Assembly (NCBI GenBank): GCA_041662245.1
Contig: JBAZSW010000003.1
Span: 45,798-109,797, forward strand
Origin: Parcubacteria group bacterium
GTDB taxonomy: Bacteria > Patescibacteriota > Minisyncoccia > Moranbacterales > UBA9337
Reading direction: 5' to 3'
DNA: 64,000 nt
Below, in pieces: positions 22,415 to 52,122 of this stretch (positions are counted from its first letter, which is position 1; each line of letters opens with the position of its first letter). The notes under the pieces were generated by a model, which was not told where the DNA came from, made no database searches, and saw only the letters and a list, made by a program, of their open reading frames with translations. The position numbers were made by a program, and so were the translations under genes.

Positions 22415-22436
22415 CTTTTTCTAAAATTTAACTATA

Positions 22437-24215: not shown

Positions 24216-24239
24216 TTATATTTATTTTTATTTATCATT

Positions 24240-24617: not shown

Positions 24618-24656
24618 AAATTCACATTAATTTATTATTATTTAATTAAAAATATA

Positions 24657-35483: not shown

Positions 35484-35485
35484 CA

Positions 35486-35516
35486 CCCTCTCCCTCTTGT
35501 ACTCAAGGGGGAGATG
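35486..35516 (+). terminator. GC-rich hairpin CCCTCTCCCTCTTG-tact-CAAGGGGGAGATG 3 nt after the ligase-1 stop; an alternative pairing with the downstream cagaggggg is possible
   Basis: Seen in the sequence. GC-rich island in AT-rich DNA. Only a weak T-tract (gggggttt). Confidence 0.3.
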
Positions 35517-35545
35517 CCGACAGGCAGAGGGGGTTTAATATATTC

Positions 35546-36778
35546 ATGACCAAATTACTCAACCCAATCTCCACCAAAAATTTAATCTATCTAACCATTT
35601 TTTTCTCTCCTGCCTATCTGCTAAGATTTTCCATCTTTGATATTCCTCTTAATGCTCTGGATATTTTAATAGTGCTGACTTTATTTCTTTGGATTTATGA
35701 AAATAATTTTAATTTATTTAAAAAAATAAAATATTCTCTTAAAAAAATATCTTCTTTTATTCTTCCAATTTCTCTCATTTTGATAGGGTTACTTATCTCC
35801 ACCTTTTTAAATGATAACTTTTTAAAAGAACTGGGCATTGTAAAAAGTTGGTTTATTTTACCTATTATTTTTGGAATTATTGTTTATATCGAGACAAAAA
35901 ATTCAACTGATTTTGAAAAAATATTAAATAGCCTTCTTTTTTCTTCTTTTTCGATATCTGTTATTAGTATTTTTTATTTAGTTTTTGATAATTTAACTTA
36001 TGACAATCGCTTAAGTGCTTTTTATTCATCTCCCAATCATCTCGCTATGACACTGGTTCCAGGAATTTTAATTAGCTTAGCGAACATTATCCAAAATAAA
36101 CAATCTAGATATTTCAAATTAGTTTTAATTATTCCTATTCTAATCTCTTTGTTTTTTACTCATTCATATTCAGCTTGGATTGCCTTATTTATATCTTCTC
36201 TTATAATAATATTTTTTAGTTCCGGCAAAAAAACAATTCTTTTTATATTTATAACAACGATTTTCTTTATTTTCTTCTTTGAGCACAATTCAGACAAGTT
36301 AAAATCACTCAACAATTCGAGCGCTAATTCCTCTTTGAGCTCTAGGATTGCCATCTGGAAGTCAGCTGAAAAAATTATTTATGATAATTGGCTCTGGGGA
36401 ATTGGCCCAGGGAATTTTCAAGAAAAATATTTATCTTATCAAAAATATTTTTATCCTTATCCAGAGTGGGCAGTTCCTCAACCTCATAATATTTTTTTGG
36501 CCTTCTGGTTACAAGCGGGCTTCTTTGGATTATTTGGCTTTGTATATTTAATAATTTTATGGTTTTTAAAAATAAAAAAAATCCTTATTTATTTTAAGGA
36601 TTTCACCAACAGAAGACCCTTTTTAATTATTTTATCTATTCTTTTTTATATTATTCTTCATGGCCTAACTGATACTACTTACTGGAAAAATGATCTCTCT
36701 CTAATTTTTTGGCTAATTATTTTTTTAGGACTATCTCTATCCTCACAGGAAATTAAATTAGATAGCAATTCTAAATAA
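35546..36778 (+). CDS. O-antigen ligase / Wzy_C family polytopic membrane protein (paralog 2)
   Basis: Multi-TM. Periplasmic loop ...AVPQPHNIFLAFWLQAGFFG. Confidence 0.6.
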   Translation: MTKLLNPISTKNLIYLTIFFSPAYLLRFSIFDIPLNALDILIVLTLFLWIYENNFNLFKKIKYSLKKISSFILPISLILIGLLISTFLNDNFLKELGIVKSWFILPIIFGIIVYIETKNSTDFEKILNSLLFSSFSISVISIFYLVFDNLTYDNRLSAFYSSPNHLAMTLVPGILISLANIIQNKQSRYFKLVLIIPILISLFFTHSYSAWIALFISSLIIIFFSSGKKTILFIFITTIFFIFFFEHNSDKLKSLNNSSANSSLSSRIAIWKSAEKIIYDNWLWGIGPGNFQEKYLSYQKYFYPYPEWAVPQPHNIFLAFWLQAGFFGLFGFVYLIILWFLKIKKILIYFKDFTNRRPFLIILSILFYIILHGLTDTTYWKNDLSLIFWLIIFLGLSLSSQEIKLDSNSK

Positions 36779-37876
36779 ATTGTTATTTTTTTTGTTTATA
36801 AAAAAAAGAAAGTCTTCATTTGGCGATATCACCAGATTAGTTGCGTCTAACTCTTCCTTTATATATTTTTCATCCAAGACTTTTTCTTTTTTTCCGCTAC
36901 CGACATTTACCTTCCAAAATATATCATTAGTTGAAAACTTATTATTTAAATAATCATTGGGCATTACTGAATTTTTGTCTATATTCTTAGGCAAGGCGCA
37001 ATAAACACTTTTATTATTTTTTGACCAAGCACATTTTGAAATCATCGTTGGCAGATTTAAATTCGTACAGTTATTATTTTTAACTTCACACACTTCTAAA
37101 TTCAAATTATTTCCTCCTTTTTGAGAAACGCTACTTCTCAAAAATTTCCCCCCATCGTTAGACCATAAATAATCAGAGCCAAATTTCATTTCTCCTATTT
37201 TTTCTAGCTCTCCTTCTCCAAAAGGGATAATTGTCATATTTGATTCCTTAAAAGCATCTGGCACAGACCAAAAAGAAGCCTTGGCTGACTCCGGTATATA
37301 GCTCATAATAATATCATCACTTTCCAATTTAGCAAGCTCCTTCCAATCGCTTCCATCTGGATTAGCGATATTTAGAGTTTTCTTTCTGCTAGCATAATCT
37401 TCATAAGAATACACAATTTTTTGGTTAAAATTCATCCAACTTAAAGCCTTCGTTTTTTTAATAAATTTTTCCTTATTTCCAAATTTGTATAGATAAAAAG
37501 AATCTCCCATTTTTAGAATGGCTTCTTTTTTATCATTGCTCCAAACTACCTTATCTAGCTTGCCAAAATCATCATTAGAAAGACGCTCCTTGATTGAACC
37601 ATCAAAAGAAGCTAACCAAAAACCTTTTTCATTATTATTATAATATTGTATTTTATCTCCTTTCAAATCCAATGTTAATCCTTTTATGTTTCCATCAATT
37701 ATTTTGATCACCTTTTCTAAAATAGGTGCGTTGCTCTTCTCTGAGTTATTATCTGAAATTTGGCTTGCTTTACTATCATTTTTTGCAGAGTTATCCACTA
37801 ATAAGAAATTATAGATAAAATAAAAACCACCTACCAAAAGAAACATTACCAATGAAATTACAAAAACTTTTTTCAT
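36758..37876 (-). CDS. secreted/anchored hypothetical protein, possibly beta-propeller (PD40/TolB-like)
   Basis: N-terminal TM/signal. Repeated D-G-S-x-W / SPNEDFLFF-type blades. The 3' end overlaps ligase-2 by 21 nt (convergent). Confidence 0.45.
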   Translation of the reverse strand: MKKVFVISLVMFLLVGGFYFIYNFLLVDNSAKNDSKASQISDNNSEKSNAPILEKVIKIIDGNIKGLTLDLKGDKIQYYNNNEKGFWLASFDGSIKERLSNDDFGKLDKVVWSNDKKEAILKMGDSFYLYKFGNKEKFIKKTKALSWMNFNQKIVYSYEDYASRKKTLNIANPDGSDWKELAKLESDDIIMSYIPESAKASFWSVPDAFKESNMTIIPFGEGELEKIGEMKFGSDYLWSNDGGKFLRSSVSQKGGNNLNLEVCEVKNNNCTNLNLPTMISKCAWSKNNKSVYCALPKNIDKNSVMPNDYLNNKFSTNDIFWKVNVGSGKKEKVLDEKYIKEELDATNLVISPNEDFLFFINKKNNNLFRIAI

Positions 37877-37897
37877 TTCTAAAGACCTCCATTAAGT

Positions 37898-40816
37898 TTA
37901 ATTATATTTTTTTTCTCCAAAAGATATCACTACTCCGGCAGCAAAAATTATTATGAATGTAGTCAACATTATTCTAAACATAAAAATCATTTGCTCTGGT
38001 ATGTTATAAGCTAAACCAGCCAATATCTTAGTAGCTTTTTTTGAGGCAGATTGATCTGCAGAATCAGTTACTTTTATTGTAATAGAATCAGATATTTTTT
38101 CTCCGGAAGTAACCACCTCTGACAATCCCCAATTTTTCAAAGTAGCTCTTTCTGAATCTGATTGCCAATATTCACCTTCGTAAGAAACATTTACCAATGT
38201 TCCGGCTGGATAAGAGGATAAATCTATCATTCCACTATCTTGAGCCACACCATTGACGTAATATTTAACATTCTTCAAGCTGCCACTAATCCAATTTGGA
38301 TAATAAGTGGGATTAATTGTAACAGTTCCGCTCCCACTAAATACTTTTTCTCTACAATTAGAAACCGTTTCATTTGAAGAAATGCTAGTATAAGTGCCCA
38401 AAGATGAACTGGTGTCAGTATCTCCATTTAAATCCTTACATTCTTCTCCTCTATTTAATCTATTGTTAGGACCCAATCCTATCATTGGCTCTACTACTAC
38501 AAAATTTCTAGTAACGGTTAATTTTTCACCTTTATTTCCAGCCACTGTCGAAGCAGGACTAACAGTATCATTGGCTATCACACTAATAACATGGCTATCT
38601 CCAGGGTTTCCCTCTAAGACAAAACTTACGCTATTGCCCTGTTTTGTTTCATCAGCGCCCAATGTTGTAATTTCTTTTCCATCTAATGTCCAAAGATAGT
38701 TATTAACACTACCTGAAGGAAGAGTAACTGTTATTATTTGATTTTTTAACACCTCGCAAGATCCTCCTGTTTGACAAATATCCGTATCCCCAGATTTGAT
38801 AGCAATTCCAGTGGTACTACTTTTATTTGGTTCCACTAATATGTCTCCCCTACCACTTCTTGTAGTACCTGTAGTACCTGTCCCCGTATCAAAAAATTCT
38901 TCACTTTCCACAAAAAATCTTAAAAAATCATAATCACCTATATCATTTAATTGCATTTCAAACTGATCCATGCCCAACCCTTCCAATGTGTTTATATTAT
39001 TCTTTTTTCTAAAATTAGCATCGTCACTCAATATAGTCCAGTCTTCTTTTGCTAAACGAAGATCTTCTCTATTGCCGTTAAATCCATAGATAGACCACTT
39101 ATAATAAATCTGATTATTATCTAAATTCTTATTACTAGTATCGACTGCTACTACTAAATTGTCACCCCCCATCTCTACTCCAGCACCATCTACTCCCAAA
39201 GATCCTACCGTTGGATTTTTTGGGTAATAATCCATAGCTACATCCATATTATCCGCTTGATAACCGTCAGCAGGAGAAACAAAATTAAACTCCAGACAAT
39301 TATCTATATTAACCATAGCAAATGGTATTTTTACATCATAACCTTTTATTGCCTCTGTATAATCATTCTTTTCTTCTATTTTACATTCGCTACCCTCCTT
39401 ATTGAAAACATTGTTAACCAAAGCAAATGTGATAGCGTTAGAGGAATCATCATGTTTAGTCCCCATATAGGATTGACCTTCTACTATTACACCTATTTGA
39501 TCTCCAGGAGCATAAGTCCAAGTTACTTTATCTGTCCCTATTCCTGCCACATTAGCTTCATCGGTGTTACCATTATTTGCCGTACTAGGATCAAGAGGAT
39601 CTGTTCCCCAAAAATTTTCTTCATCAGGACCAAAATCACCATCTCCCGTTGACATCCCCGGCGCAACCGCAAATTGATGTTCGCACTTTTGCTCCACTTT
39701 GGAATTTTCATAACTAGTTGTTTCACAATTAACATCTTTTTCCCCAGGATCACCAAGATCAAAAACACTTATTGCACCTGTTACGATCAAATTGCAATCA
39801 GGATTAATTAGATACATTTGGTCTGCTGCTATACAACGCACCGTTGTTCCTTCTGGGCAAGTAGTTTTTTTTGTTTCTGGATCACAAATTGGTTCATAAC
39901 CTGAATCCGTATTGGCATCAATACTTGCGGTACTAGTTCCATCAAATAATTCATCATGCTCCGGAACAGTTATACTCACACTAGTTGAGGACGACGATCC
40001 ACCACTACCATCATCTGTAGCAGTAGAATCACCGCTCCCCATATCTTGTTCAGGAACATGTATCGCCCCACTCATAATTCCACAACTTAAATTATAGGGA
40101 CTGCTACACATTAATGTTCCCTCGCAACTAAAGGTATCTGAGCTACCATTATCGCTACTACTAGCGGTGGCAATTTCATAATCCTTGCCTGAAATAAAAT
40201 CATGCAAATAGCAATAATCTGTTTCTTGAATATTTACTTTTCCTCCAATATGAGCGTTAAAGCTATCGTCATCCGTACTAGATCCATAATCTGCTTTTTC
40301 TTTTACAAATCCACTGTTGGCTACCGCTCTCATTGCTTCAACTTTCCAATCGTTTGCTTGGACCTGTCCATCACCATCAGAGTCACAAAGCTCAAAATTA
40401 GGATCACTCTGAGGAAGCTCTCTATCGCAACCCTTATGTTTAATATACCAAGTAAAATACATATTTTCCTTTCCTTCTTGAAAATATTTAGGAATGGCGG
40501 TTGCTGTTACTTCCTCTCCAAATTTTGGATTAGTCGGATTAAAAAATATATCCACTTCAGGAGCGGGACTTTTTTGATCAGAAACATTAAAGCTTTCTCC
40601 AAAATTTGTTATGGAGTCTGAATTTAAGTGATATCTTTCTTCCAACTGTTCTAACATTCCATTGGCGTTAATCGTAGAATCTCCATCGCTTCCCAAAATA
40701 CCACCCAAGAGACTATCCAATTCAGCTTGCGTTGGATGTATATTCATTAAAACAATCTCCAAAGAAACCAAGGAAATAAGAAAAATCTTTTTTATAATTT
40801 TTTTTATTTTTTTCAT
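37898..40816 (-). CDS. large (972 aa) Cys/Gly/Ser/Thr/Asp-rich surface protein with N-terminal signal peptide and C-terminal TM anchor
   Basis: Signal peptide MKKIKKIIKKIFLISLVSLEIVLMNIHPTQA. Many Cys pairs. C-terminal TM FRIMLTTFIIIFAAGVVISF. Confidence 0.55.
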   Translation of the reverse strand: MKKIKKIIKKIFLISLVSLEIVLMNIHPTQAELDSLLGGILGSDGDSTINANGMLEQLEERYHLNSDSITNFGESFNVSDQKSPAPEVDIFFNPTNPKFGEEVTATAIPKYFQEGKENMYFTWYIKHKGCDRELPQSDPNFELCDSDGDGQVQANDWKVEAMRAVANSGFVKEKADYGSSTDDDSFNAHIGGKVNIQETDYCYLHDFISGKDYEIATASSSDNGSSDTFSCEGTLMCSSPYNLSCGIMSGAIHVPEQDMGSGDSTATDDGSGGSSSSTSVSITVPEHDELFDGTSTASIDANTDSGYEPICDPETKKTTCPEGTTVRCIAADQMYLINPDCNLIVTGAISVFDLGDPGEKDVNCETTSYENSKVEQKCEHQFAVAPGMSTGDGDFGPDEENFWGTDPLDPSTANNGNTDEANVAGIGTDKVTWTYAPGDQIGVIVEGQSYMGTKHDDSSNAITFALVNNVFNKEGSECKIEEKNDYTEAIKGYDVKIPFAMVNIDNCLEFNFVSPADGYQADNMDVAMDYYPKNPTVGSLGVDGAGVEMGGDNLVVAVDTSNKNLDNNQIYYKWSIYGFNGNREDLRLAKEDWTILSDDANFRKKNNINTLEGLGMDQFEMQLNDIGDYDFLRFFVESEEFFDTGTGTTGTTRSGRGDILVEPNKSSTTGIAIKSGDTDICQTGGSCEVLKNQIITVTLPSGSVNNYLWTLDGKEITTLGADETKQGNSVSFVLEGNPGDSHVISVIANDTVSPASTVAGNKGEKLTVTRNFVVVEPMIGLGPNNRLNRGEECKDLNGDTDTSSSLGTYTSISSNETVSNCREKVFSGSGTVTINPTYYPNWISGSLKNVKYYVNGVAQDSGMIDLSSYPAGTLVNVSYEGEYWQSDSERATLKNWGLSEVVTSGEKISDSITIKVTDSADQSASKKATKILAGLAYNIPEQMIFMFRIMLTTFIIIFAAGVVISFGEKKYN

Positions 40817-40838
40817 TTTTTAGAATTTTAATTCGATA

Positions 40839-41507
40839 TTATTTAGTTAGTTTTAAATAAATAATATCACTAGCAATTAATACTATTATACTAAATAAAT
40901 AAGAATACACCAAAGATTTGCTTTTATAAGCAATCATTCCTGCCAATAAAGCCGTCATCATATAAAAAACATAATCCATTGATAATCTTCCCATCATATC
41001 CAAAAAGATCAAAAATAATAAAAATTGGATAAAAATAGTGTAAACATTGAATCTTTTCCCAAAATAAAACATTACAAATCCCCTGAAAAAAACTTCGTAC
41101 AAAAAAACAAACAAATTGACTATTAAAAATTCATAAACAAAAAGGTATGCGTAACTGTTTACCATATCATACTTACCCAAAAAATAATTTTGAGAGAAAT
41201 TAGTGTAACTGAAAATTATATAAAAAAATCCTCCCATTATCAAAAGACAGACCGGAAAAATAAAAAAACCTTCTTTCCATTTATTAATCTTAAATCCAAA
41301 ATTATTCAAATCTTCTTTTAAAATAACTTTTATGTAGAGAAGGGGAAGCAACAAAAAAACTACCAAGCCCAAAATCACTTGTTGAAAAGAGCCTTTAACA
41401 GTAAAAAAGGCAAACAGTAGCAAACAGATAAGAATTACCGATAATGTTGTTACTGTTTCAATATTAAATATTTCCTCTCTTTTTTTGCTTTTGTAATTTA
41501 TATCCAT
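40839..41507 (-). CDS. CPBP (CAAX protease/Abi)-like polytopic membrane protein, degenerate
   Basis: Six TM helices. YEVFFRG ~ EExxFRG motif 1. His motifs not evident. Confidence 0.35.
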   Translation of the reverse strand: MDINYKSKKREEIFNIETVTTLSVILICLLLFAFFTVKGSFQQVILGLVVFLLLPLLYIKVILKEDLNNFGFKINKWKEGFFIFPVCLLIMGGFFYIIFSYTNFSQNYFLGKYDMVNSYAYLFVYEFLIVNLFVFLYEVFFRGFVMFYFGKRFNVYTIFIQFLLFLIFLDMMGRLSMDYVFYMMTALLAGMIAYKSKSLVYSYLFSIIVLIASDIIYLKLTK

Positions 41508-41565
41508 TTATTTTATATTTTACCCATTTGAAGATATTTTTTTAATCCTAAAATACTTATATTTT

Positions 41566-42183
41566 TTAGTCCTCTCCCGCCTCTTGAACAGCCATTCTTT
41601 TTTCTGATTTTCTATCCACCAGCGACATCCAATAAATTATTCCCACCGTCAACATCTCAAAGGGAAGAAAGTTTAATCCAAATAAAACCCCTTCTACAAT
41701 TGTCCCAGCAATTAAAATTAGAAATTTTTTAGTCAATCTTCTGGCTACTTTCCTTTTTGACATTGTTACCCCATCAAATAGCAAGACAAATCCGATTGCA
41801 ATAGAAATACAAAAAGTTATAACAGTTCCAATAGCAGGTAACGATCCAATAAAAGCTAGATCCAATAAATCTTTCAAAAAAGCTAAGGCCATAGCTAATC
41901 CATAGACAAATACATCCATTATTCGAAATTCTGTTGGTGCCGTCACTAAATCTTTAGCTTTTCTGGCTGCGGCTAACGGTGCAGCAATTTTTGCTAATTT
42001 ACCCGTATATTTTTTCGTTTCTTTTTTCTCATTTTCTTTTCCATACAAACCTTCTCTCCTTCTGAATTTTTCAGACCCATTCATATTATCTCTAATTCCA
42101 TCTGCTTTATTTATTTTATTTTCAACGGTTTCTCTCCTGACTTGATTCAATCTTATTTTATTATTTATTTCTTCCTCTGCCAT
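41566..42183 (-). CDS. hypothetical membrane protein (charged N-terminus, 3-4 C-terminal TM)
   Basis: ORF plus hydrophobicity pattern. First gene of the T4SS-like block. Confidence 0.4.
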   Translation of the reverse strand: MAEEEINNKIRLNQVRRETVENKINKADGIRDNMNGSEKFRRREGLYGKENEKKETKKYTGKLAKIAAPLAAARKAKDLVTAPTEFRIMDVFVYGLAMALAFLKDLLDLAFIGSLPAIGTVITFCISIAIGFVLLFDGVTMSKRKVARRLTKKFLILIAGTIVEGVLFGLNFLPFEMLTVGIIYWMSLVDRKSEKRMAVQEAGED

Positions 42184-42284
42184 AATTTTGTTTTCTTAAT
42201 AATATAAAATCAAAAACAAGATTTCTCATTCATCCTATTATACATCAATAAAAAATCTATCCAAAACCTAACTCTCAATTAAAA

Positions 42285-44090
42285 CTAATTTTCTAATTCT
42301 TTCTTTGCCTCCTCTATTTCCAAAAGTTGTCTTGGATCAGAAGTAATAATCTGATCTTCACTGTAGGAAGCCACTACCTTTATCGCAGCGTGCTTATTGC
42401 CCGCAAAAAATATCCCCTCTCCCACATTGCTTTCCAACAATAAAAACTTTTCTTGATCAGTTAAAAAGAATGTTTCTTGAACTATATCAATAGCCGCCGT
42501 AGATTGCTTTAATAAAAACTGAGTGGAAGCATTGGTTACAATCGGTTTTCCATAACGAGAAGTCATAAAATCATTAACATCCTGAGTAATCGTGGTTAAT
42601 CCTGTATAATATTTTCTACATCTTTTAGCTATTCCAAAAAGAAAAGAAGCGGCATCTTCATGTTGCATCATTATCCAAGCCTCATCCACCACCACCAAAC
42701 GCCTTTTTATTTTTGATCGCATTTGATTCCAAATAAATTGCAACACTACATACATAGCAATTGGACGCAATTCCTCTTCCAGATCACGAATGTTAAAAAC
42801 TACCAACTGTTTATCCGTTTTTATATTAGTATGCTCATTCAAAAATCCAGAGAATATTCCTTCGGTATATCTTTCTAATTTAATTGCCAATGATTTGGCT
42901 CCGTCCATATTTCTTAAAACCTCATAGAGATCTGACATGGTTGGAAATTGATTTAACTCAATTAAAGAAAAATTAGTTTGTTCTGTAATATCTCGCACAG
43001 CATAAGTTTCTCGAATAGCATTATCTAATATAGAATTTTCTTCAGGAGTAAGATTTCCCAACATTATTCTTAAAAGTCCTACCAAATTAGCAATTGAATT
43101 TCTCAAGATATCAGAAGAATCTTCATCTTCTGATGCACTCGGTAAATCAAAAGGATTGAGGTGATATTTGGAATTAAGTGCTATTTTTATAAAACTGCCT
43201 CCTACTGTATCAGATAAATGCTTGTATTCATTTTCTGGATCAATTATTATTACATCCACTCCCATCATCATTGATCGAAGTATCTCCAGCTTAACGGCAT
43301 AACTTTTTCCTGCTCCACTTTTTGCGAAAACCACCATATTAGCATTTTCCATTTCAAATCGATCAAATAAAATCAAACTATTATTATGACGATTGATTCC
43401 ATATAATACTCCCGAGTTGGAAGATAGTTCCGCTGAAACAAATGGAAAAATAGTAGAAAGGGGCGAGGTGTTTAAATTGTTAGCAACGTCCAATCTGTCT
43501 TCATTCAATGGAATAGTAGAAGCTAGTCCATCTTCCATTCTAAAACTGGCTGGCTTGGCATAAACCATTTGCGCTTCCAATATAGCCTCAATACTATGAT
43601 GAACTCTGTTTAAATCCTTGGTGCTTTCTCCAAATATTGTTATATAAATCCCTACTCGAAAAAATCTTTCTGTTCCTTCTTGTAACCTCGTTCGTAATTC
43701 TTCTGTATTTTCCAAAGCAGACTCCAACATAGGATTCCTTACTTTTCCATCTTGAGCTTCTAAATTTATTCGAGACTGAATTTGAGTAGTAGTTTTCAGA
43801 AGTCCTTTCAATACTTTATTGCTATCCATAGGATGGATAAATATTGAAATATTTATTGGATGATCAATATTAATTATAGAAGAAAACCAATTGACGCTTA
43901 AAAACCTAGGAAAAGCCATAACAAAAATGGTTTTCGCAAAAGTTTCCCCAATTTCCAAATAGCTTGGCGCAACTCTAAAAGCCGCGGGTGAGATTAAATC
44001 TTTTATTACCGCCAAACCCTTTCGATACTCGTCCTCCTTGGCGATAACAGGGTCTATCGGTCGATTTCTATTTCTGTTATTTAAAAACAT
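42285..44090 (-). CDS. VirB4/TrbE/CagE-family type IV secretion ATPase (ATPase core)
   Basis: Walker A VFAKSGAGKSYAV, Walker B LVVVDEAWIMM. 601 aa. Confidence 0.75.
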   Translation of the reverse strand: MFLNNRNRNRPIDPVIAKEDEYRKGLAVIKDLISPAAFRVAPSYLEIGETFAKTIFVMAFPRFLSVNWFSSIINIDHPINISIFIHPMDSNKVLKGLLKTTTQIQSRINLEAQDGKVRNPMLESALENTEELRTRLQEGTERFFRVGIYITIFGESTKDLNRVHHSIEAILEAQMVYAKPASFRMEDGLASTIPLNEDRLDVANNLNTSPLSTIFPFVSAELSSNSGVLYGINRHNNSLILFDRFEMENANMVVFAKSGAGKSYAVKLEILRSMMMGVDVIIIDPENEYKHLSDTVGGSFIKIALNSKYHLNPFDLPSASEDEDSSDILRNSIANLVGLLRIMLGNLTPEENSILDNAIRETYAVRDITEQTNFSLIELNQFPTMSDLYEVLRNMDGAKSLAIKLERYTEGIFSGFLNEHTNIKTDKQLVVFNIRDLEEELRPIAMYVVLQFIWNQMRSKIKRRLVVVDEAWIMMQHEDAASFLFGIAKRCRKYYTGLTTITQDVNDFMTSRYGKPIVTNASTQFLLKQSTAAIDIVQETFFLTDQEKFLLLESNVGEGIFFAGNKHAAIKVVASYSEDQIITSDPRQLLEIEEAKKELEN

Positions 44091-44129
44091 ATTTAAATTA
44101 ATTATTTAGTTAACCCAATAATAAATTCC

Positions 44130-44816
44130 TCATTCCAACTCTATTGACTCCAAATCTTTTATAGCAGCAGCCGAATAAATCGATGGATTATAGGATGAAT
44201 ATAATAATTCAATTAATTCTTCGGTATTTAAAACTGTCGATTTAACTCCCAGCGAAGCTAATCCTGAAGAAATTTGATCTACTCTCTGCCATAATTGATT
44301 TTTATAAGTCTCAAAAATTTCTACTGATTCCTCTATTTGTTGTTTTGGATTAAAAAGACTCATTAATTTTTCCAAAAGACCATTCTCTAAATTTTCTACG
44401 GGATAAAATGGCACTACTACATAAAACTGTTTGGTCATTATTTGTGATATTTCCGTTAAATTTTTTATGAAGTTTGAATATTCAGAAATTTGAAGTCGCA
44501 TCAACTCACTGGTTTGTGTTTTTCTTTTCTTCTCTAATAATTCTAGATAAGGTTCTATGTCCAATTTTTTTGAACTAATCATAATCTGCACTGGAAAATC
44601 CAAAGAATTAATAAAATTTTGATAACCTCCAATTATTGCTTCTTGTTCATCTGACGATTTCAAATCAAAATTTATAGAAGAAACTAATAAAATTGCTCTT
44701 AATGATTTATTTTTTAAAACCACTAAATCATTTTTTACTTCTTCTACATTGATATATTTCTGAGTACTCATTGCCGATTTTTGTGATTTTTGATTTTTTG
44801 CGTGCATCAATTCCAT
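44130..44816 (-). CDS. hypothetical protein, possibly a split-off VirB4 N-terminal domain
   Basis: 228 aa directly upstream of the ATPase core, with a 39-nt gap and stops in all frames in between. The sum, 829 aa, matches the usual VirB4 length. Confidence 0.4.
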   Translation of the reverse strand: MELMHAKNQKSQKSAMSTQKYINVEEVKNDLVVLKNKSLRAILLVSSINFDLKSSDEQEAIIGGYQNFINSLDFPVQIMISSKKLDIEPYLELLEKKRKTQTSELMRLQISEYSNFIKNLTEISQIMTKQFYVVVPFYPVENLENGLLEKLMSLFNPKQQIEESVEIFETYKNQLWQRVDQISSGLASLGVKSTVLNTEELIELLYSSYNPSIYSAAAIKDLESIELE

Positions 44817-44927
44817 ATTTTTTATTTTTTTCGCTCGTCATTTCGAGCTTATCCACTAATTATATAATTTATGACACTCCTTTAGGATTTTAACTGTACA
44901 ATTTTAAAAAAATACCCGAATAAAAAG

Positions 44928-45356
44928 TTATTTTTTATTTATCTCATCTAAAATATCTGTTTCACTATCTAATATCTTAGATATGTCATAAATTTCTTTT
45001 TGTTTTGGCAAATTCTTATGCGCCACACTGTGAATCACTTCTTTTTTATATACTTTTTTCTCATCCAATACTTTTCCGTTTCTTTCCCACATATATACCT
45101 TTGGCCTGACAAAAAATAAAAACATTGAACCAATAAATTTACTTAATGGCTGACCATAGGGACGATAAAAAGCTAACCCAAGAAATAACAAGCTTACAGG
45201 AGATGCTGCTAAAAAAAAGTTTAACCTACTTCCTATAAAAATCCACATTAAAAATAAAACTGCTGCCAAACCGAACAGCCACAATAATTGCTTGGCAGTC
45301 AGTGGCCCTACAATTTGGTCTTCTATATCTATAAATTGTGGAACATTATAATGCAT
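44928..45356 (-). CDS. PrgI/VirB3-like small two-TM T4SS protein
   Basis: 142 aa. FIDIEDQIVGPLTAKQLLWL then two TM helices. Positioned upstream of VirB4 as in Gram-positive T4SS. Confidence 0.45.
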   Translation of the reverse strand: MHYNVPQFIDIEDQIVGPLTAKQLLWLFGLAAVLFLMWIFIGSRLNFFLAASPVSLLFLGLAFYRPYGQPLSKFIGSMFLFFVRPKVYMWERNGKVLDEKKVYKKEVIHSVAHKNLPKQKEIYDISKILDSETDILDEINKK

Positions 45357-45483
45357 AATTTTAAATACTCAATGTTCAATGTTTATTCAATATTCAACTC
45401 TCAATATCCCATAAATTAATTTGAATATTAATTTATTTTATTATTAAATGTGTATTGGTTATTGCATATTGGAATATTATTTT

Positions 45484-46611
45484 TTATTCTATTGGCTCTA
45501 TCTTTCCAAAAAAATTTTTAAGTCTTTCGTTTTCTACTTCTTGATTTCCCCTAAAGTTAGGCTTTCCCAAATCATTTTCTTTTTCTACGGGTAGTTGCTG
45601 CGGAGAAGAAAATTTTATATTATCCTGATTATTTTCTCCTAAATTTATACTATCAAAATCTTCCCTTTTCTTATTACCAATCAAAGTTCCGGCATTATTT
45701 TCTTTTACAAAATGCGAACTCTTTAAATCCCAACTGTTTCCCTGCACATGATTTATTACCGTCCCTTTATTTTCTTCATCTTCTCTAACTATTTTTTTTT
45801 CGTAATCTGGCTTTGTTTCTTCTTTTTTTTCTAAAATTGGTCTTGCATATACAGGTGCTTCTGTTTTTTTAATTAAAGCAGGAGCTATTCCTTCAAAAAT
45901 AACCTCTCTCTTGGAAGGATCTACTCGAAATAAAAATCCCTCATCTAATGATTTCAAAACATTGGATAGTCTTTGTCTATCAGCAGTATTTAAATTCTTA
46001 ACATTTTTACTGTGATAAAGATAACTGCTTCTTTTCATCATGTCTCGATTTCCTGCTCCTACAATCGTAAAATAATCTCTTGCCCAATTTCCAACTGTTG
46101 GTTTGACTATCTGACCATCCGATTCAATGGGAAAACTAGTTAATATTTGCATCTTAATCTCTGGATATTTTTCCATCGCTTGAGAAATTGTCATTTTCAC
46201 AGTTTGTGCTACCACTGGCTTAGCCGCATCTCTTTTTATTACTCTTTCTATAATATATCGAGAAATATTTTGCGCATCAGTTAAACTAATATTTGATTCT
46301 TTGCTTATCACACTAGCAAAATCTTCTAATTTCAATTCTCCAAAATAATAACTACGAATTGCTCGAGCAATCGGAGCCATTTGTAGTAGCTCCAGCTTAT
46401 AATGTGCTCCTACATTTTTTATTTTTTCTACTGTTTCATTGGAAGTTAGCTTATCTTTAATATTTTCTGGTAATTTAAGAAATTTTTCTTGTCGTTCTAT
46501 TACTTGTTTATCTGTTTCATCATCTGGACTTAAAGTTGTAAAAACAGCTTGAGGAATAACGCACCGCCTAAGCTGAATTTCTTTATTTAATTCTGAAAAT
46601 TTTATAGTCAT
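45484..46611 (-). CDS. hypothetical soluble protein in the T4SS-like cluster
   Basis: ORF. Start taken at MTIKFSELNK; the ORF track's start at 46650 would overlap the upstream gene by 20 nt. Confidence 0.45.
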   Translation of the reverse strand: MTIKFSELNKEIQLRRCVIPQAVFTTLSPDDETDKQVIERQEKFLKLPENIKDKLTSNETVEKIKNVGAHYKLELLQMAPIARAIRSYYFGELKLEDFASVISKESNISLTDAQNISRYIIERVIKRDAAKPVVAQTVKMTISQAMEKYPEIKMQILTSFPIESDGQIVKPTVGNWARDYFTIVGAGNRDMMKRSSYLYHSKNVKNLNTADRQRLSNVLKSLDEGFLFRVDPSKREVIFEGIAPALIKKTEAPVYARPILEKKEETKPDYEKKIVREDEENKGTVINHVQGNSWDLKSSHFVKENNAGTLIGNKKREDFDSINLGENNQDNIKFSSPQQLPVEKENDLGKPNFRGNQEVENERLKNFFGKIEPIE

Positions 46612-46630
46612 AAGTCTTAAGCATAAAAAA

Positions 46631-48565
46631 CTAAGCCCACATTCCGGCACCTTGTCCTTGCATATATTTGTCTCCTCTCATTTCACTAGTGAGTTTAGCT
46701 CTAGCACTAGGTGAATATCCATTAATGACATCCGTAGCACCACCCACAACACCACTTTTTCCAGGTATTGAAGCTGTCGCTACGATTCTTTCAATGTTCT
46801 GCTCCTTCCAATCATTCGTGTTTAATTTTGCAAATTCTTTTTTGGCTATATCAAAAGCAGCCCCTCCCGTTGCTCCAGTTCTTACTATCTCTTCGTTTAT
46901 TATTAAATCAACATTCTTTTTTCTTACGTTGCTTTCGAATAAATTTTTATAAACATCATTATCCCCAAGAACAGTCAATCCTTCTTGATATTGCTTAAGT
47001 GCTTTATCGGGATCTTTATCAAAACCTTTTGTTTCTGCTCTATGAAGAGCTAATGCCATTTTTTCAGCTTTGCTTCCGCTACTATCTATTCTATTTGTTT
47101 CAGCGTCACTTATTCCACTTCCTTCCTTATACTTCTTTAGATTCTCTTGAACTAGTTTTTCATTAGCACCCTTAACTCCAAGAAAATCTGCAGATTGAGT
47201 TTTTCTTGTAGTTGAAGCTGTTTTATAATTCTCACCCCAGCTATCCCATTTCGCTTTGAGTCCTCCTATGCCTCCAGAAATTCTATGTCCTGTCATTGTA
47301 TCAACACCCTTCCCTGCTAACCCCACTGTTCCCCAAGCTGCTTTTTGTCCATAAGATTTAATATTATTTCCTACTTTTTTTGCCATACCCATCGCCATCT
47401 CAGATCCCATTCCTCCCATTTTTTGAGAAATAGTTAATCCCATCCAAAGAAAAATAACTCCAATAATATGTATCGGTATCTCAGTTCCTGCTACATTAGT
47501 ACTACTACTCAATGTTCCTTTACTAAATAGAACCATCGTTATTAATAAAAAGAATGCCAATACCGGACCCATAAAAGCATACTTCAATAATTTATCCCAC
47601 CAGTCATTTGATATACTACTAGTCCCAGGAAAAAATGCGAACACAAAGCCAAAGGGTGATAATATTACCAAAACGATAAAAGCTATCATTCTTATTAATA
47701 AATTTATTGCCAAAGCCATTATTGTGACAGTGTAAATAAATAAAAGAACGATGCTAACAATTATTTGCCCTGTTGTATTTCCTGATGTAAAAGATGCTTC
47801 ATTATATTGATTTTTTAAAGTATCTCCAAATTTTAAAACTTTACCTATGTAAGCAGAAGAACTGGCGCTACTGCTATTTGGGAAAGCAACTTCCACTAAA
47901 AATCTCATTGCTGAATTAGAAAAATCCACTACGAATACTGCGATGGCATAACTAAAATTGACCAATAGCGCCATCACTACCAACATTATAATTATTTTTT
48001 TAAGATTATATTTTTCTACCTGAAAAATCGTACAAAAAGCAGAAAATAATAACAATAGCATAAAAAACAGATTTAATATGTCCCTTACTGCTGCCCACAG
48101 TTTGTAAACACTTCCTTCTTTAATCAAGTCTCCTAAATAATCTGTATTGAGAGCAAAATCCAGCAATTGTGCTGCTATAATTAATAATTTTGAAATCGCC
48201 CATAACACACTGTAAAGTAACCAATTAAAAACCCACAATGATCCTCCTTTTGCCACCGACGAAACACTAACACCCACAGAATTAAGTGCATTTTTTCCAG
48301 CTAAAAATGTACTTCCACCAGGAACTGCCATTAGCATTGAAGAAGTTTTTAGTCTTGATGCTATATCATCTATCCAATCAGCTTTTGCAGAAATGCCTAT
48401 TTTACTATTTGTGAAATTAATATTTAAAATCATAACTCCCAAAATCAAAAACAAACCTATTTTGCCGAAGGCTTTTTTGGATGGATTTTTTAGTGAGTTT
48501 TTTATCCTATTAAATAAATTATCTACAAACTTAATAGGACTATTCCCATTTTTTTTCATTATCAA
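46631..48565 (-). CDS. VirB6/TrbL-like polytopic membrane protein with long Gly-rich C-terminal extension
   Basis: ~7-8 TM helices in the first 400 aa. 644 aa. Confidence 0.45.
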   Translation of the reverse strand: MIMKKNGNSPIKFVDNLFNRIKNSLKNPSKKAFGKIGLFLILGVMILNINFTNSKIGISAKADWIDDIASRLKTSSMLMAVPGGSTFLAGKNALNSVGVSVSSVAKGGSLWVFNWLLYSVLWAISKLLIIAAQLLDFALNTDYLGDLIKEGSVYKLWAAVRDILNLFFMLLLLFSAFCTIFQVEKYNLKKIIIMLVVMALLVNFSYAIAVFVVDFSNSAMRFLVEVAFPNSSSASSSAYIGKVLKFGDTLKNQYNEASFTSGNTTGQIIVSIVLLFIYTVTIMALAINLLIRMIAFIVLVILSPFGFVFAFFPGTSSISNDWWDKLLKYAFMGPVLAFFLLITMVLFSKGTLSSSTNVAGTEIPIHIIGVIFLWMGLTISQKMGGMGSEMAMGMAKKVGNNIKSYGQKAAWGTVGLAGKGVDTMTGHRISGGIGGLKAKWDSWGENYKTASTTRKTQSADFLGVKGANEKLVQENLKKYKEGSGISDAETNRIDSSGSKAEKMALALHRAETKGFDKDPDKALKQYQEGLTVLGDNDVYKNLFESNVRKKNVDLIINEEIVRTGATGGAAFDIAKKEFAKLNTNDWKEQNIERIVATASIPGKSGVVGGATDVINGYSPSARAKLTSEMRGDKYMQGQGAGMWA

Positions 48566-48765
48566 AAAAATAATTTTTGTATTTATTTGAGCGAAACCGT
48601 TTTCCTTATTTTACCACAAAAACAAAGAAAAAATAACAACACGAAAAGTAATATTTTTCCTGAGTATAATTATAACAGAAATATAAGAATATACAAAATT
48701 TTTATTTTTCATAATTGTACTATTTTTATAACATATAAAAATAAGTCATGAAAATAAAATTTAAA

Positions 48766-48809
48766 AACCATCAAAGCTACTAATTCAAGCAATTGATGGT
48801 TATGTTTTT
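48766..48809. terminator. hairpin AACCATCAA-N18-TTGATGGTT + T-run; bidirectional terminator after the 73-aa gene
   Basis: 9-bp perfect stem. T5 on plus, T-rich on minus. Confidence 0.55.
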
Positions 48810-48820
48810 CAAACAAAACT

Positions 48821-49042
48821 TTAGAGAATCATCTGTCTCAGCCCCCAAATAGAGGAAGCGGGAGCTATAATGACTCCTAATATGAAGGATGCAATTATTC
48901 TATTAAAATAAGCATCGACATCATTTAACATCAAATTCGACATTGCCATATTTGCGACAACTACCGCTACCGCCAAAAGAAGCAGCGATGCAACAAATAC
49001 ATAAATTCCGATACTCTTTTTGGTTTTCTCTTCTTTACTCAT
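48821..49042 (-). CDS. small two-TM protein, VirB2/TrbC pilin-like candidate
   Basis: 73 aa, two hydrophobic helices, own terminator. Confidence 0.35.
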   Translation of the reverse strand: MSKEEKTKKSIGIYVFVASLLLLAVAVVVANMAMSNLMLNDVDAYFNRIIASFILGVIIAPASSIWGLRQMIL

Positions 49043-49165
49043 GGCATCCTCCCTCTTTTCAATGTTAGTGTTTTTTATATAAAATGTACTATTTTTCTCA
49101 GCATTATTTTAACACAAAATTGTTTACTTATCAATAAAAAGATATCCATCAAAATAAAACAAATG

Positions 49166-49205
49166 AAAACCGCCTAACACCAAAAAGGCATCGGGCGGTT
49201 TTTTG
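49166..49205. terminator. GC-rich hairpin AAAACCGCC-N19-GGCGGTTTT + T-tract; bidirectional terminator after the 107-aa gene
   Basis: Only strongly GC-rich stem in this AT-rich region. Immediately follows the stop at 49223. Confidence 0.6.
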
Positions 49206-49222
49206 ACTAACCATTGAAAGTA

Positions 49223-49546
49223 TCAACAGTTAGCAGCAGACGATTTGGCAGAAGAAGGTTTATTATTGGATATCTCAGAAGGAGAGACTACCCCATAAAT
49301 TTTCTTCATTCCGTTTATAATTAGCAACGGAGCACCTCCCCAACAGCACAGGGTTGCAAACATTGTTTTTAGTGGGTTGGCATCGTTCATAATTCCTTCC
49401 CAGGTAAACATATCTGCTGTGTAGTTCTGAACTGTGTTTGAAAGAAGCAGGGCGATGGCTAGAATCAAAATTCCAGCAACAACGGTGCTAATTCCATTCA
49501 TTTTTTCATTCATGCTTTCCTTTTCACTCATAACCGTACCCTCCAC
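49223..49546 (-). CDS. small two-TM protein, VirB2/TrbC pilin-like candidate
   Basis: 107 aa, two hydrophobic helices, C-terminal Ser-rich tail, own terminator. Confidence 0.35.
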   Translation of the reverse strand: MEGTVMSEKESMNEKMNGISTVVAGILILAIALLLSNTVQNYTADMFTWEGIMNDANPLKTMFATLCCWGGAPLLIINGMKKIYGVVSPSEISNNKPSSAKSSAANC

Positions 49547-49712
49547 TATTTTTTAATTTAAAAGTTAACTGCTAATTTAACGCCAAATTTAGCGTTAACT
49601 CACTATAGCAGAAAACGGTTTTTCTGTCAAGTCAAACAAAAAACAGCCTCCAAAAGAAAGCTGTTTTTATACTATGCATAATTTTATAAACCTTACAAAC
49701 TTTATAAACTTA

Positions 49713-50789
49713 CTAATAAATAAATCCTTTTATTACCCTACTATTAGTCGGGATAGTTCTTCTGCTAGTTTTAGCCCATCCTTTATAATTCATTTCTGAG
49801 ACAGTGATAGTTCCTTTGCCAACAGATTCTACGATAGCCACGTGTCCCCACCATGATTCAGAGCTAACCATGATCGCTCCCGCCGCTGGTGCTTTTCCCG
49901 TTTTATAACCTCGAGCTTTGGCATTATATAACCACGTTCCTGCATTCCCTCCCCATGGCACATATCTTTTTTGGGCCACATACCAAGTACAATAACCATA
50001 AGGAAATCTATGTCCAGTTCCTCCCTTTCCATCCAATTTTAATGTTCCTGAAATCTTAGGATCCCCACCCGTTGACGTCGCATAACTTCTTCTTTCAATT
50101 CCCAATGTGTCTGTCTGAACTGGCACAGGAATATCTTTCTGTCCCCCAGGGATAACTATTTCCTGACCCTCTGCAATTTCTCCATTAGCGGGAATATTGT
50201 CATTAAAAGATATTATTTTTTCTTTTTCCGCTTTATATTCCTTAGCTATATCATCTAAATTTTCTCCTTTTTTAACCACATGTGTCAAACCAGCTACTGG
50301 TAAAATAAAAATTTGATCCCCAGGTTTTATTTCATCCACATCTTCAATATCATTTGCCCAAAGAATAGTATTGGTTGTTATGTCAAATTTTTGAGCAATA
50401 GTGCTTACAGTATCTCCATCTTTAACTACATAAACTTCCACACCTCCATCTTCTTCTGGGTCTTTTAATACAGGACTCGAAGGGGCGCTTACAATTTTAC
50501 CCTCCACTGAATTTATTTGATTTAAATCATCCTCTTTGAATTCCGGATTAACCGCTTTGCTAGCTACAGAAATAGGACTTAATTGAGCTCGTTTACTATT
50601 TTCAGCTTCAATACTCATATCGTTTTTAATTCTGTCTTCGCCACTAGTTCTCCATTCTCCTGCTAAAAAGCTACCTGTCTTCCCTTGCGCAGCCATGTTG
50701 GTGATACTCACTAATATTGCGCCAGAGAAAACCACAGCCAAAGCAGAATATTTCCTAAAAAGGTATAATAATTTTACCGTTTGATGCAT
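49713..50789 (-). CDS. LysM-LysM-CHAP peptidoglycan hydrolase (VirB1/PrgK-like role)
   Basis: Two LysM repeats (YVVKDGDTVSTIAQKF..., HVVKKGENLDDIAKEY...). CHAP domain with Cys (GYCTWYV) and His (WGHVAIV). Confidence 0.75.
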   Translation of the reverse strand: MHQTVKLLYLFRKYSALAVVFSGAILVSITNMAAQGKTGSFLAGEWRTSGEDRIKNDMSIEAENSKRAQLSPISVASKAVNPEFKEDDLNQINSVEGKIVSAPSSPVLKDPEEDGGVEVYVVKDGDTVSTIAQKFDITTNTILWANDIEDVDEIKPGDQIFILPVAGLTHVVKKGENLDDIAKEYKAEKEKIISFNDNIPANGEIAEGQEIVIPGGQKDIPVPVQTDTLGIERRSYATSTGGDPKISGTLKLDGKGGTGHRFPYGYCTWYVAQKRYVPWGGNAGTWLYNAKARGYKTGKAPAAGAIMVSSESWWGHVAIVESVGKGTITVSEMNYKGWAKTSRRTIPTNSRVIKGFIY

Positions 50790-51027
50790 CTTTATAAAAA
50801 GAGCAATTTTTCTTTGTATATTATAAGTCTTTGTCTGAAAATTTTTACTTTTTACAAGAATCTTTTGAAAAAATCCTTTTATTTGTTTTTTACAAATACA
50901 GCAAAAATCCTTTCTTTAGTTCAAACTTTTAGAATTTTGCAATAAAAAAAGCAATTTTCATCAAATTCGAACTCTAATTTTTATACTCAAGCTATTATAT
51001 TATTAATAATCGTCAAAGTCAAAGCAC

Positions 51028-51047
51028 TTATCCACAGCTTATTAACA
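51028..51047 (+). promoter_or_regulatory. TTATCCACAGCTTATTAACA: perfect DnaA-box 9-mer within the shared 20-nt motif
   Basis: Direct reading of the sequence. 240 nt upstream of the CHAP gene and 158 nt upstream of xer. Confidence 0.3.
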
Positions 51048-51204
51048 GAATTTATATTGTTACTCACATTTAAAGGCATACCTGTTTGATAAAATTTTTA
51101 AAAGAAGTGCTGATTTTTTATAAATCTTAAATTACCATCTCAATATTTTATCTTCAATGCAAAAACACTAGCCTTTTATTATGTTAATATGCTAATATAT
51201 ATTT

Positions 51205-52122
51205 ATGTCGCACAATCATTTAGAATCATTAAAAAACGATTTTCTAGAGCATCTGGAAATAGATCTCAACAGATCTCAAAAAACTATCGAAAATTATGCC
51301 CATTATCTCGATCGTTTTTTGGTTTTCTCAAAAATATCTCAAGCTAAAGCTATTGATTTAAATCTGGTAAAAAAATATAGATTATATTTAAACCGATTAA
51401 CAGACGAAAAAGGCCAAGTCCTTAAAAAAATAACTCAAAATTACCACATTATTGCTCTAAGAAATTTTTTGAAATATCTAGCTAAACAAGATATAGTTAC
51501 TCTCTCAGCCGAAAAAATAGACGTTGGTAAAAATCCTCAGCAAGAAATGATTTTTTTAAATTTTGATGAAATAGAACGCATTCTCAATGAAGCTAATGGA
51601 AAAAACATAAAATCACTTCGGGATCGTGCTATTTTGGAATTGCTTTTTTCTGCGGGGCTCCGTGTTTCTGAACTTTCCGCTCTCAATATAGAGCAAATTA
51701 ATCTCAAGACACAAGAATTCAGCATAATTGGAAAGGGTTCTAAGATGAGAGTAGTCTTTATCTCTGATTCAGCTAAAATTGCATTGGAAAGATATCTTCA
51801 AGAAAGAATGGACATTGATCCGGCTCTATTTATCAGAACAAATAAAATTGGATTTACCAAAGAAGATGATCTTAGATTAACCCCTCGATCTATTCAAAGA
51901 ATTGTAAAATTTTATTCCAAGAAAGCTGGCATAATTAAAGATGTTCATCCTCATACCTTTCGTCATAGTTTTGCTACTGACTTACTCGCTAATGGCGCTG
52001 ATATTCGTAGTGTTCAAGCAATGTTAGGACACTCTTCTATAACTACTACTCAAATTTATACCCATGTTACCAACCAACAACTCCGTGATATTCATAAAAA
52101 ATTCCACAGAAAATCAAAGTAG
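51205..52122 (+). CDS. tyrosine site-specific recombinase (XerC/XerD-like)
   Basis: N-terminal SAM-like domain. C-terminal HPHTFRHSFATDLL...LGHSSITTTQIYTHV (R-H-R-Y). Confidence 0.8.
   Translation: MSHNHLESLKNDFLEHLEIDLNRSQKTIENYAHYLDRFLVFSKISQAKAIDLNLVKKYRLYLNRLTDEKGQVLKKITQNYHIIALRNFLKYLAKQDIVTLSAEKIDVGKNPQQEMIFLNFDEIERILNEANGKNIKSLRDRAILELLFSAGLRVSELSALNIEQINLKTQEFSIIGKGSKMRVVFISDSAKIALERYLQERMDIDPALFIRTNKIGFTKEDDLRLTPRSIQRIVKFYSKKAGIIKDVHPHTFRHSFATDLLANGADIRSVQAMLGHSSITTTQIYTHVTNQQLRDIHKKFHRKSK

Follow-up and report, generated by a model that had tools for sequence, protein, structure and literature searches.

Type IV secretion systems of Patescibacteria

Type IV secretion systems (T4SSs) are known from the chromosomes of Patescibacteria, also called the Candidate Phyla Radiation (CPR), where they are non-conjugative. 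A survey of 3,035 Patescibacteria genomes by Quinonero-Coronel et al. (2025; PMC12102498) recovered their VirB4 ATPases as a monophyletic clade inside MPF-FATA; TrsD was the most frequent companion of virB4, and PrgI/VirB3 and VirB6 were also reported. According to the same survey (PMC12102498), it is chiefly in Paceibacteria that VirB1-like LysM/CHAP proteins accompany virB4, relaxases are nearly always missing, type IV coupling proteins (T4CPs) are rarely found nearby, the locus lies near dnaA, rnpA and rpmH, and VirB2-like pilins are encoded near virB4 in 1,135 assemblies, which makes them frequent but not universal. Transposon sequencing by Wang et al. (2023; PMC10633639) found the T4SS and a series of pilins to be essential for epibiotic growth of Southlakia epibionticum, and those authors proposed protein export or an alternative role for the system; a 2025 FEMS review (PMC12857230) notes that ComEC, and not the T4SS, is required for competence. 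Here we analyze a T4SS gene cluster in 64,000 nucleotides of a Parcubacteria group bacterium (hereafter the window, meaning the whole stretch of DNA that was analyzed). We are confident, if short of certain, that this cluster is the known patescibacterial T4SS, here in Moranbacteria, and that two small genes upstream of its VirB6 gene are orphans rather than VirB2 pilins.

The locus shares with the Patescibacteria-clade systems (PMC12102498; S. epibionticum genes SEML1_0006-0019, PMC10633639) an MPF-FATA VirB4 with adjacent TrsD, PrgI/VirB3 and VirB6, a VirB1-like LysM/CHAP hydrolase near virB4, as reported for Paceibacteria, the absence of a nearby relaxase or T4CP, and a chromosomal site near rnpA, rpmH and yidC. 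It differs from them in that the 64-kb window encodes no PF18895 or PF04956 pilin, whereas sibling Moranbacteria carry pairs of pilins, in having two orphan small membrane-protein genes in a hypervariable slot ahead of VirB6, and in the possession of Moranbacteria-specific accessory genes (h388, a CPBP protease and a 972-residue protein). With the monoderm conjugative MPF-FATA systems (Trs of pGO1/pSK41, Prg of pCF10, and the CD1110 type of CTn2) it has in common the VirB4 family, PrgI and a VirB6-like channel protein, as well as the TrsD-plus-VirB4 split of pGO1 and the CHAP-containing wall hydrolase known there as PrgK/TrsG. It differs from those systems in that a relaxase, a coupling protein, an oriT and the adhesin PrgB were not found in the window, that its hydrolase is devoid of a lytic transglycosylase domain, and that the locus is chromosomal, vertically inherited and syntenic, with at most 35.5% identity to the best-matching plasmid VirB4s.

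The original prediction for this DNA had described nine consecutive minus-strand genes forming a Gram-positive-type T4SS cluster. All nine open reading frames (ORFs) were found, and a cluster of this type (MPF-FATA-like), with a split VirB4, PrgI, VirB6 and a LysM-CHAP hydrolase, is confirmed by our analysis. The prediction had also read the cluster as a non-conjugative host-contact apparatus, which is correct, yet already published.

The VirB4 ATPase, its detached N-domain and the channel proteins

All coordinates given below are positions in the window, and every gene and signal of the locus lies on the minus strand. The gene at 42285-44090 encodes the C-terminal two-thirds of a VirB4-family ATPase. 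Its product scores 372.6 bits with the hidden Markov model (HMM) NF045971 (conju_CD1110, VirB4-like conjugal transfer ATPase, CD1110 family), for which the cutoff is 325, and it matches PF19044 (E 9e-28), and the translation contains both a Walker A (GAGKS) and a Walker B (VVVDEAW) motif, in agreement with the assignment made in the original prediction. The best solved relative is the C-domain of Thermoanaerobacter VirB4 (4AG5, E 1e-47). The protein aligns to profile positions 185-730 only and so is without an N-domain, while the adjacent gene at 44130-44816 encodes a 228-residue protein that aligns with the N-terminal regions of VirB4 models (Mbov_0397 positions 91-253, E 5e-11; CD1110 positions 2-119) and with the TrsD/TraD model NF041427 (E 7.6e-7), and for which a precomputed PF26593 TraC-like match is listed. 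The earlier suggestion that this protein is a detached VirB4 N-domain is therefore right, and we refer to it as TrsD.

For comparison with other genomes we used a VirB4-based scan with one genome per species, from which the best 80 of 228 confirmed relatives were kept; synteny was assessed by tblastn of the window proteins against these 80 loci, individual members of which are cited below by L numbers. The 80 loci belong to Patescibacteria metagenome-assembled genomes by title or by T4SS synteny; the titles of a few are uninformative or name other taxa (for instance 'uncultured Bdellovibrionales'). Their VirB4 proteins are 57-92% identical to the one in the window, the closest (63-92%) being from Candidatus Moraniibacteriota metagenome-assembled genomes and the remaining ones, at 57-62%, from other Patescibacteria. 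The best-matching plasmid VirB4s, from monoderm hosts (Firmicutes, Actinobacteria), are 30-35.5% identical. TrsD is present next to virB4 in 78 of the 80 loci.

The remaining channel components are equally recognizable. A PrgI/VirB3-like protein with two transmembrane (TM) segments is encoded at 44928-45356 (PF12666, 39 bits, above its cutoff, E 1.2e-9) and has counterparts in 75/80 loci, and a polytopic VirB6/TrbL-like protein is encoded at 46631-48565 (PF04610, 39.5 bits, likewise above cutoff), with counterparts in 64/80. The latter also matches the CD3337/EF1877 mobilome membrane protein domain and ends in a long, hydrophilic, partly Gly-rich C-terminal extension. Both assignments had been made in the original prediction, as had the tail of VirB6, and they hold.

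Housekeeping genes flank the cluster on both sides (Fpg, HolA, RuvA, UvrD/PcrA, ThiI, Fur, rubrerythrin, YidC, Jag, RnpA, RpmH). UvrD and ThiI adjoin it, and the distance to YidC, Jag, RnpA and RpmH is 12-14 kb, which gives the chromosomal, origin-proximal location described for these systems; the cumulative GC skew does not reverse within the window, indicating that the origin itself lies outside it. The GC content of the window is about 31% and uniform, without a compositional break at the cluster.

Two orphan membrane-protein genes upstream of VirB6

Two small genes separate the hydrolase gene from VirB6. The first (49223-49531) encodes a protein of 102 residues with two hydrophobic helices; its ORF opens at a GTG at 49546 (107 residues), and the ATG at 49531 is the likelier start, as in independent database gene calls. 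It has a promoter-like site at 49602-49630 (TTGACA-17-TATAGT with an extended -10 TG, 11/12 matches) and an intrinsic terminator at 49166-49202, in which a AAACCGCC...GGCGGUUU stem precedes a U-run (-20.9 kcal/mol, z -3.6). The second gene (48821-49042) encodes a two-TM protein of 73 residues, with a promoter-like site at 49106-49134 (TTGATA-17-TAAAAT with TG) and a terminator at 48766-48801, also a stem followed by a U-run (-15.4 kcal/mol, z -3.3). A GGAGG ribosome-binding site precedes each gene. The original prediction had given both genes strong GC-rich terminators of their own. Both hairpins with their U-runs are present, but a GC-rich stem is found only after the 102-residue gene, that of the 73-residue gene being AT-rich (AACCAUCAA). 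Judged by these signals, the two genes are separate monocistronic units, each with its own promoter, Shine-Dalgarno sequence and terminator.

Among 5.8e9 proteins the 102-residue protein gave only self hits, and a filter-free HMMER search of 1.84e9 representatives added four matches, all confined to short hydrophobic stretches of long proteins unrelated to it. The 73-residue protein likewise had only a self hit in the 5.8-billion-protein database; a weak phmmer match (E 0.006) connects it to a 4-TM protein in the corresponding slot of L041. The two proteins are unrelated to each other, and no homologue of either was found in genomes whose VirB4 is 88-92% identical to the one in the window. At the DNA level, the stretch 48708-49633 (about 0.9 kb) has no similarity to any relative, whereas both of its edges, the terminator of the hydrolase gene and the promoter and leader of the VirB6 operon, are conserved. 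In relatives the slot between these edges spans 0.25-4.3 kb and is either empty or occupied by unrelated small proteins with 2-4 TM segments or by small soluble ORFs that are apparently unrelated as well; no match was obtained when the slot proteins of relatives were tested against pilin models. On the evidence of these comparisons, the small genes sit in a hypervariable slot between the hydrolase terminator and the VirB6 promoter, and they are, as far as sequence searches can tell, species-specific orphan membrane proteins without a detectable link to VirB2. The soluble ORFs of relatives (L041, 1010-1547; L002, 1402-1671) suggest that the slot is an insertion hotspot. An adjacent pair of 47- and 134-residue proteins in the L041 slot resembles, by eye, a nucleotidyltransferase/HEPN toxin-antitoxin pair.

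The claim that the small proteins are VirB2/TrbC-like pilins found no support in these and the following comparisons. Like members of the VirB2/TrbC and PF18895 families, they are short and have two hydrophobic helices; they differ from those families in lacking HMM or profile-profile similarity, a discernible signal peptide, the Cys motif and homologues, and in their position within the locus. Searches of both proteins against PF04956 (TrbC/VirB2), PF18895 (T4SS_pilin) and the NCBIfam pilin models returned nothing at E up to 10. We then aligned them by hhalign to a profile built from 29 bona fide PF18895 pilins of related loci, which gave probabilities of 12% for the 73-residue and 16% for the 102-residue protein, as against 99.1% for a held-out pilin used as control. 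When the profile of relatives' pilins was compared with window ORFs of at least 40 residues, no match was obtained anywhere in the window, and none of the cluster proteins matches PF04956 or PF18895, so that a VirB2-like pilin near virB4 is absent here. The small proteins contain two hydrophobic segments in total, with no additional N-terminal signal segment discernible by eye, and their charge distribution suggests hairpins with both termini inside (N-in/C-in) and an acidic external loop, unlike VirB2-type propilins. A single-sequence AlphaFold2 (AF2) model, made for the 102-residue protein only, is a helical hairpin of low confidence (pLDDT 61), and a Foldseek search with it against the PDB returned one meaningless match and no pilin; the model is too weak to speak for or against a pilin.

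Canonical pilins (PF18895, with a G[LI]VPCG...C.LCH motif) do occur in more distant Moranbacteria (L014, L015, L017, L019, L026, L028, L029, L031, L034 and L038) and in other Patescibacteria. In Moranbacteria their genes lie mostly between the homologues of the 972-residue and 372-residue proteins described below (g972 and g372), often as pairs, and some encode proteins of 260-320 residues with extensions. They are found at about 15-18 kb in locus coordinates, except in L014, where they lie at 7.3-8.8 kb, upstream of VirB4. The closest clade (L001-L013) has no canonical pilins between the g972 and g372 homologues.

The alternative that the two proteins are nevertheless extremely divergent VirB2-type pilins or pilus-associated subunits deserves consideration, although we regard it as unlikely. 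Each is a small helical hairpin, each gene has a near-consensus promoter, a Shine-Dalgarno sequence and a terminator, both lie inside a T4SS locus, and the window is without a canonical PF18895 pilin. Moreover, patescibacterial pilin arrays are very divergent, averaging 25% identity (PMC12102498), and the pilin subunits of S. epibionticum were reported from structure-based annotation (PMC10633639). On this alternative the strong separate promoters and terminators would reflect high-copy subunits, and the slot would be the Moranbacteria counterpart of the divergent pilin arrays of Saccharibacteria. Against it stand the failure of the pilin models and of the profile alignment, the missing Cys motif, the lack of a separate N-terminal signal peptide as judged by eye, the charge distribution, the lack of relationship between the two proteins, the lack of homologues even where VirB4 is 88-92% identical, and the different position of the canonical pilin genes of relatives. 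We therefore retain the reading of the two genes as orphans. A further, speculative possibility, to which we give little weight, is that the slot is a swap site at which Moranbacteria exchange or invent small, strongly expressed T4SS-associated membrane proteins that replace the PF18895 pilins of their siblings; if true, the small proteins would be candidates for hyper-divergent pilus or contact subunits, host-specificity factors or exclusion factors.

The LysM-LysM-CHAP hydrolase

Upstream of the slot, the gene at 49713-50789 encodes a peptidoglycan hydrolase whose N terminus carries a membrane anchor or signal. The two LysM domains and the CHAP domain assigned to it in the original prediction are confirmed by HMM (PF01476 twice, E 1.9e-20; PF05257, E 6.9e-18), while no SLT or lysozyme-like domain was found in it with Pfam or NCBIfam models, so that the two-domain arrangement of monoderm VirB1 proteins is not seen here. 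The gene is followed by an intrinsic terminator at 49639-49668 (a 13-bp stem and T-run), the DNA of which is conserved in L004 and L010, and it adjoins VirB6 in 12 related Moranbacteria loci.

Three properties of this gene count against its inclusion in the secretion system: it is separately terminated, its best NCBIfam matches are the cell-division hydrolases PcsB and DipM, and the CHAP-VirB6 adjacency is found in only about half of the Moranbacteria loci with enough upstream sequence. For these reasons a T4SS role is plausible rather than demonstrated, and the protein is a candidate VirB1-like wall-opening enzyme. The first two properties would also suit an arrangement in which the hydrolase and the small membrane-protein genes have no part in the T4SS and belong together as a holin/endolysin-like or cell-division hydrolase unit, as would weak matches of the small proteins to holin families (E about 0.02). 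We judge such a unit improbable: the holin matches are far under their cutoffs and typical for any two-TM protein, the CHAP-VirB6 adjacency persists without the small genes in L012, L024, L025 and L027, no phage genes lie nearby, and VirB1-like LysM/CHAP proteins have been reported as virB4-associated specifically in Paceibacteria.

Conjugation, DNA import and the neighboring recombinase

The window ORFs of at least 90 residues that were scanned, a set that comprises all apparent genes of that size rather than every mechanical ORF, include neither a recognizable relaxase nor a coupling protein; this accords with the earlier observation that neither a relaxase nor VirD4 is evident in the window. 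Nor was a second VirB4- or T4CP-like ATPase found in any of the 80 related loci at up to 10 kb from VirB4. The earlier judgment that the apparatus is more likely not a conjugation system thus agrees with the absence of these genes nearby and with what has been concluded for Patescibacteria in the literature (PMC12102498, PMC10633639, PMC12857230), and the T4SS locus most likely does not serve conjugation.

The same prediction had listed DNA uptake among the possible functions. We found no specific support for it, and in the genetically tested relative competence needed ComEC (PMC12857230, summarising PMC10633639). A function in DNA import, as in the archaeal Ced system or in ComB-type T4SSs, could account for weak matches of VirB4 to CedB (E 1e-14) and CedD (E 4e-6), and would fit the dependence of Patescibacteria on external nucleotides. 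In ABY1-class relatives the T4SS has radA, recG and comF as neighbors (PMC12102498), and we observed RadA- and RecG-like genes in distant loci. However, both Ced matches are far under their cutoffs (54 bits against 700 for CedB), the locus has no competence or recombination genes at its flanks in the window, and the T4SS of S. epibionticum is essential independently of the ComEC-requiring competence of that organism (PMC12857230). We consider DNA import quite improbable as the function of the apparatus.

On the far side of the hydrolase gene lies a tyrosine recombinase on the plus strand (51205-52122; PF00589, E 1e-43), which is a neighbor and not a part of the system. The only Xer model whose curated cutoff it passes is NF040815 (XerA type, 236.6 against 220), its scores with the XerC and XerD models being strong but below cutoff. 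That the archaeal-type XerA model is passed and the bacterial XerC/XerD equivalogs are not is consistent with a single-Xer system. The order UvrD-Xer-CHAP is shared by 9-12 Moranbacteria loci, in which sequence identity rises and falls with that of VirB4, and no att-like direct repeats bracket the region, in which only short AT-rich chance repeats were seen. The original prediction had placed the recombinase at the 3' boundary; it is a conserved chromosomal neighbor that accompanies UvrD in relatives, and not the boundary of an element. Rfam and tRNA scans of the whole window gave no matches, and hence there is no tRNA integration site beside the recombinase.

That the cluster is part or a decayed remnant of an integrative and conjugative element bounded by this recombinase is hardly tenable: the VirB4 does score above the threshold of the CD1110-family model for conjugal-transfer ATPases, the VirB6 matches a mobilome domain and a tyrosine recombinase adjoins the cluster, but neither relaxase nor T4CP was found among the scanned ORFs of the window, the recombinase is of the Xer type, the UvrD-Xer-CHAP neighborhood is constant across Moranbacteria with VirB4, Xer and UvrD co-diverging, and we reject the element on this synteny, the absence of direct repeats and the uniform composition.

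Extent of the locus and its accessory genes

Gene order is conserved throughout Moranbacteria as CHAP-[slot]-VirB6-h388-PrgI-TrsD-VirB4-m205-CPBP(222 aa)-g972-g372. The core array from VirB6 to g372 is co-directional with short gaps and stands behind a conserved extended -10 promoter and leader, giving the overall architecture (T, terminator; P, promoter) [CHAP]T / P[102 aa]T / P[73 aa]T / P[VirB6 ... 372-aa gene]. With the conserved synteny of the CPBP, 972-residue and 372-residue genes, the functional locus reaches 36758 and thus spans about 36758-50789, some 4.8 kb beyond the range of the original prediction at its low-coordinate end.

The VirB6-operon promoter and its leader of about 100 nt occupy 48566-48707, with the extended -10 promoter TGTTATAAT at about 48669-48677. 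The DNA of this region is 77-86% identical to that of L006, L041, L002 and L010, which makes it about as conserved as coding DNA; it has no Rfam match, and the noncoding leader could be a regulatory one.

Between VirB6 and PrgI lies h388 (45484-46650), a conserved Moranbacteria-specific soluble protein of 375 residues when read from the ATG at 46608. It has a confidently predicted, mainly helical domain of about 240 residues, for which no structural neighbor was detected in the PDB, and its named homologues are all from Moranbacteria or the Parcubacteria group. Directly downstream of VirB4, m205 (41566-42183) encodes a conserved 4-TM membrane protein, whose family was located by jackhmmer in 43 related loci, Patescibacteria other than Moranbacteria among them, in each case immediately 3' of VirB4; one weaker match sits elsewhere in L018. 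Neither m205 (205 residues) nor h388 (388 residues as the full ORF) has a Pfam or NCBIfam match, even at permissive thresholds.

The next gene (40839-41507) encodes a 222-residue candidate intramembrane protease of the CPBP family (Rce1/MrtA-like), with matches to NF040590 (E 1e-5) and PF02517 (E 0.006) that are both below cutoff, and it is present in 34/80 loci. It is followed by g972 (37898-40816), which according to translation and TM prediction encodes a surface protein of 972 residues with an N-terminal signal or TM segment and a C-terminal TM segment with a basic tail (…GVVISFGEKKYN). No domain matches were found in it; it is syntenic in 33/80 loci, and it is a candidate host-contact protein. 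The CPBP gene is directly upstream of g972, and both are downstream of VirB4 in 33-34 of the 80 loci; together they resemble a sorting protease with its substrate. The last gene of the co-directional array, g372 (36758-37876), encodes an N-terminally anchored protein of 372 residues without a family match, which nevertheless has tblastn matches in 53/80 loci, distant classes included, 2.5-8 kb downstream of VirB4. Sequence searches of the PDB with VirB6, TrsD, g372 and g972 yielded nothing useful.

Several other genes of the window were observed in passing. Three polytopic membrane proteins resembling Wzy_C/O-antigen ligases are encoded in the 64 kb (34161-36778 and 57621-58910), two of them in tandem and convergent with the end of the T4SS array. 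A giant protein of 2,477 residues (11153-18586), with many Kelch repeats, an fn3-like domain and N-terminal TM segments, is probably a surface protein. A PilB-type T2SSE ATPase (22437-24215) adjoins a response regulator and a histidine kinase (region 21401-25595), with unannotated genes at 20413-21129 and 21401-22414 beside it, and this region is probably part of a type IV pilus system.

Proposed role and significance

On the basis of T4SS biology and the papers cited above, we infer the following mechanism. The VirB4 ATPase and its separately encoded N-domain, TrsD, would dock on PrgI/VirB3 and VirB6, and these four proteins together would form a translocation channel of the monoderm type, while the exported LysM-CHAP hydrolase would open the peptidoglycan locally. 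The downstream 4-TM protein, the CPBP-type protease, the 972-residue surface protein and the anchored 372-residue protein may supply envelope or host-contact parts. As no relaxase or coupling protein is encoded nearby, the most likely role of the machine is in the epibiotic lifestyle and not in conjugation, through the exchange of proteins or other molecules with a host cell or through attachment to it.

In addition to the properties of the hydrolase gene given above, some points weigh against this interpretation. The mechanism is carried over from the genetics of Saccharibacteria and from structures of conjugative T4SSs, and not from Moranbacteria. The placement of the VirB4 in the Patescibacteria clade is a probable one, drawn from best hits. 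Finally, the window represents 64 kb of a 196-kb contig, and a T4CP, a relaxase or a canonical pilin may be encoded elsewhere in the genome; in the 2025 survey VirD4-like genes lie far from virB4 in many Patescibacteria (PMC12102498).

What this locus adds to existing knowledge is modest. In Moranbacteria the conserved locus reaches as far as a CPBP-protease/large-surface-protein pair and a widely conserved 372-residue protein, and the closest lineage is without canonical pilin genes within the locus. The orphan, independently transcribed genes of the slot might have a role in host specificity and form one minor loose end of the locus. The significance of the patescibacterial T4SS itself was established by the publications of 2023-2025, and the window provides one more ordinary Moranbacteria example of it. 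No other T4SS has been reported as essential to the organism that has it, and the patescibacterial one is thought to underlie the epibiotic lifestyle of these bacteria.

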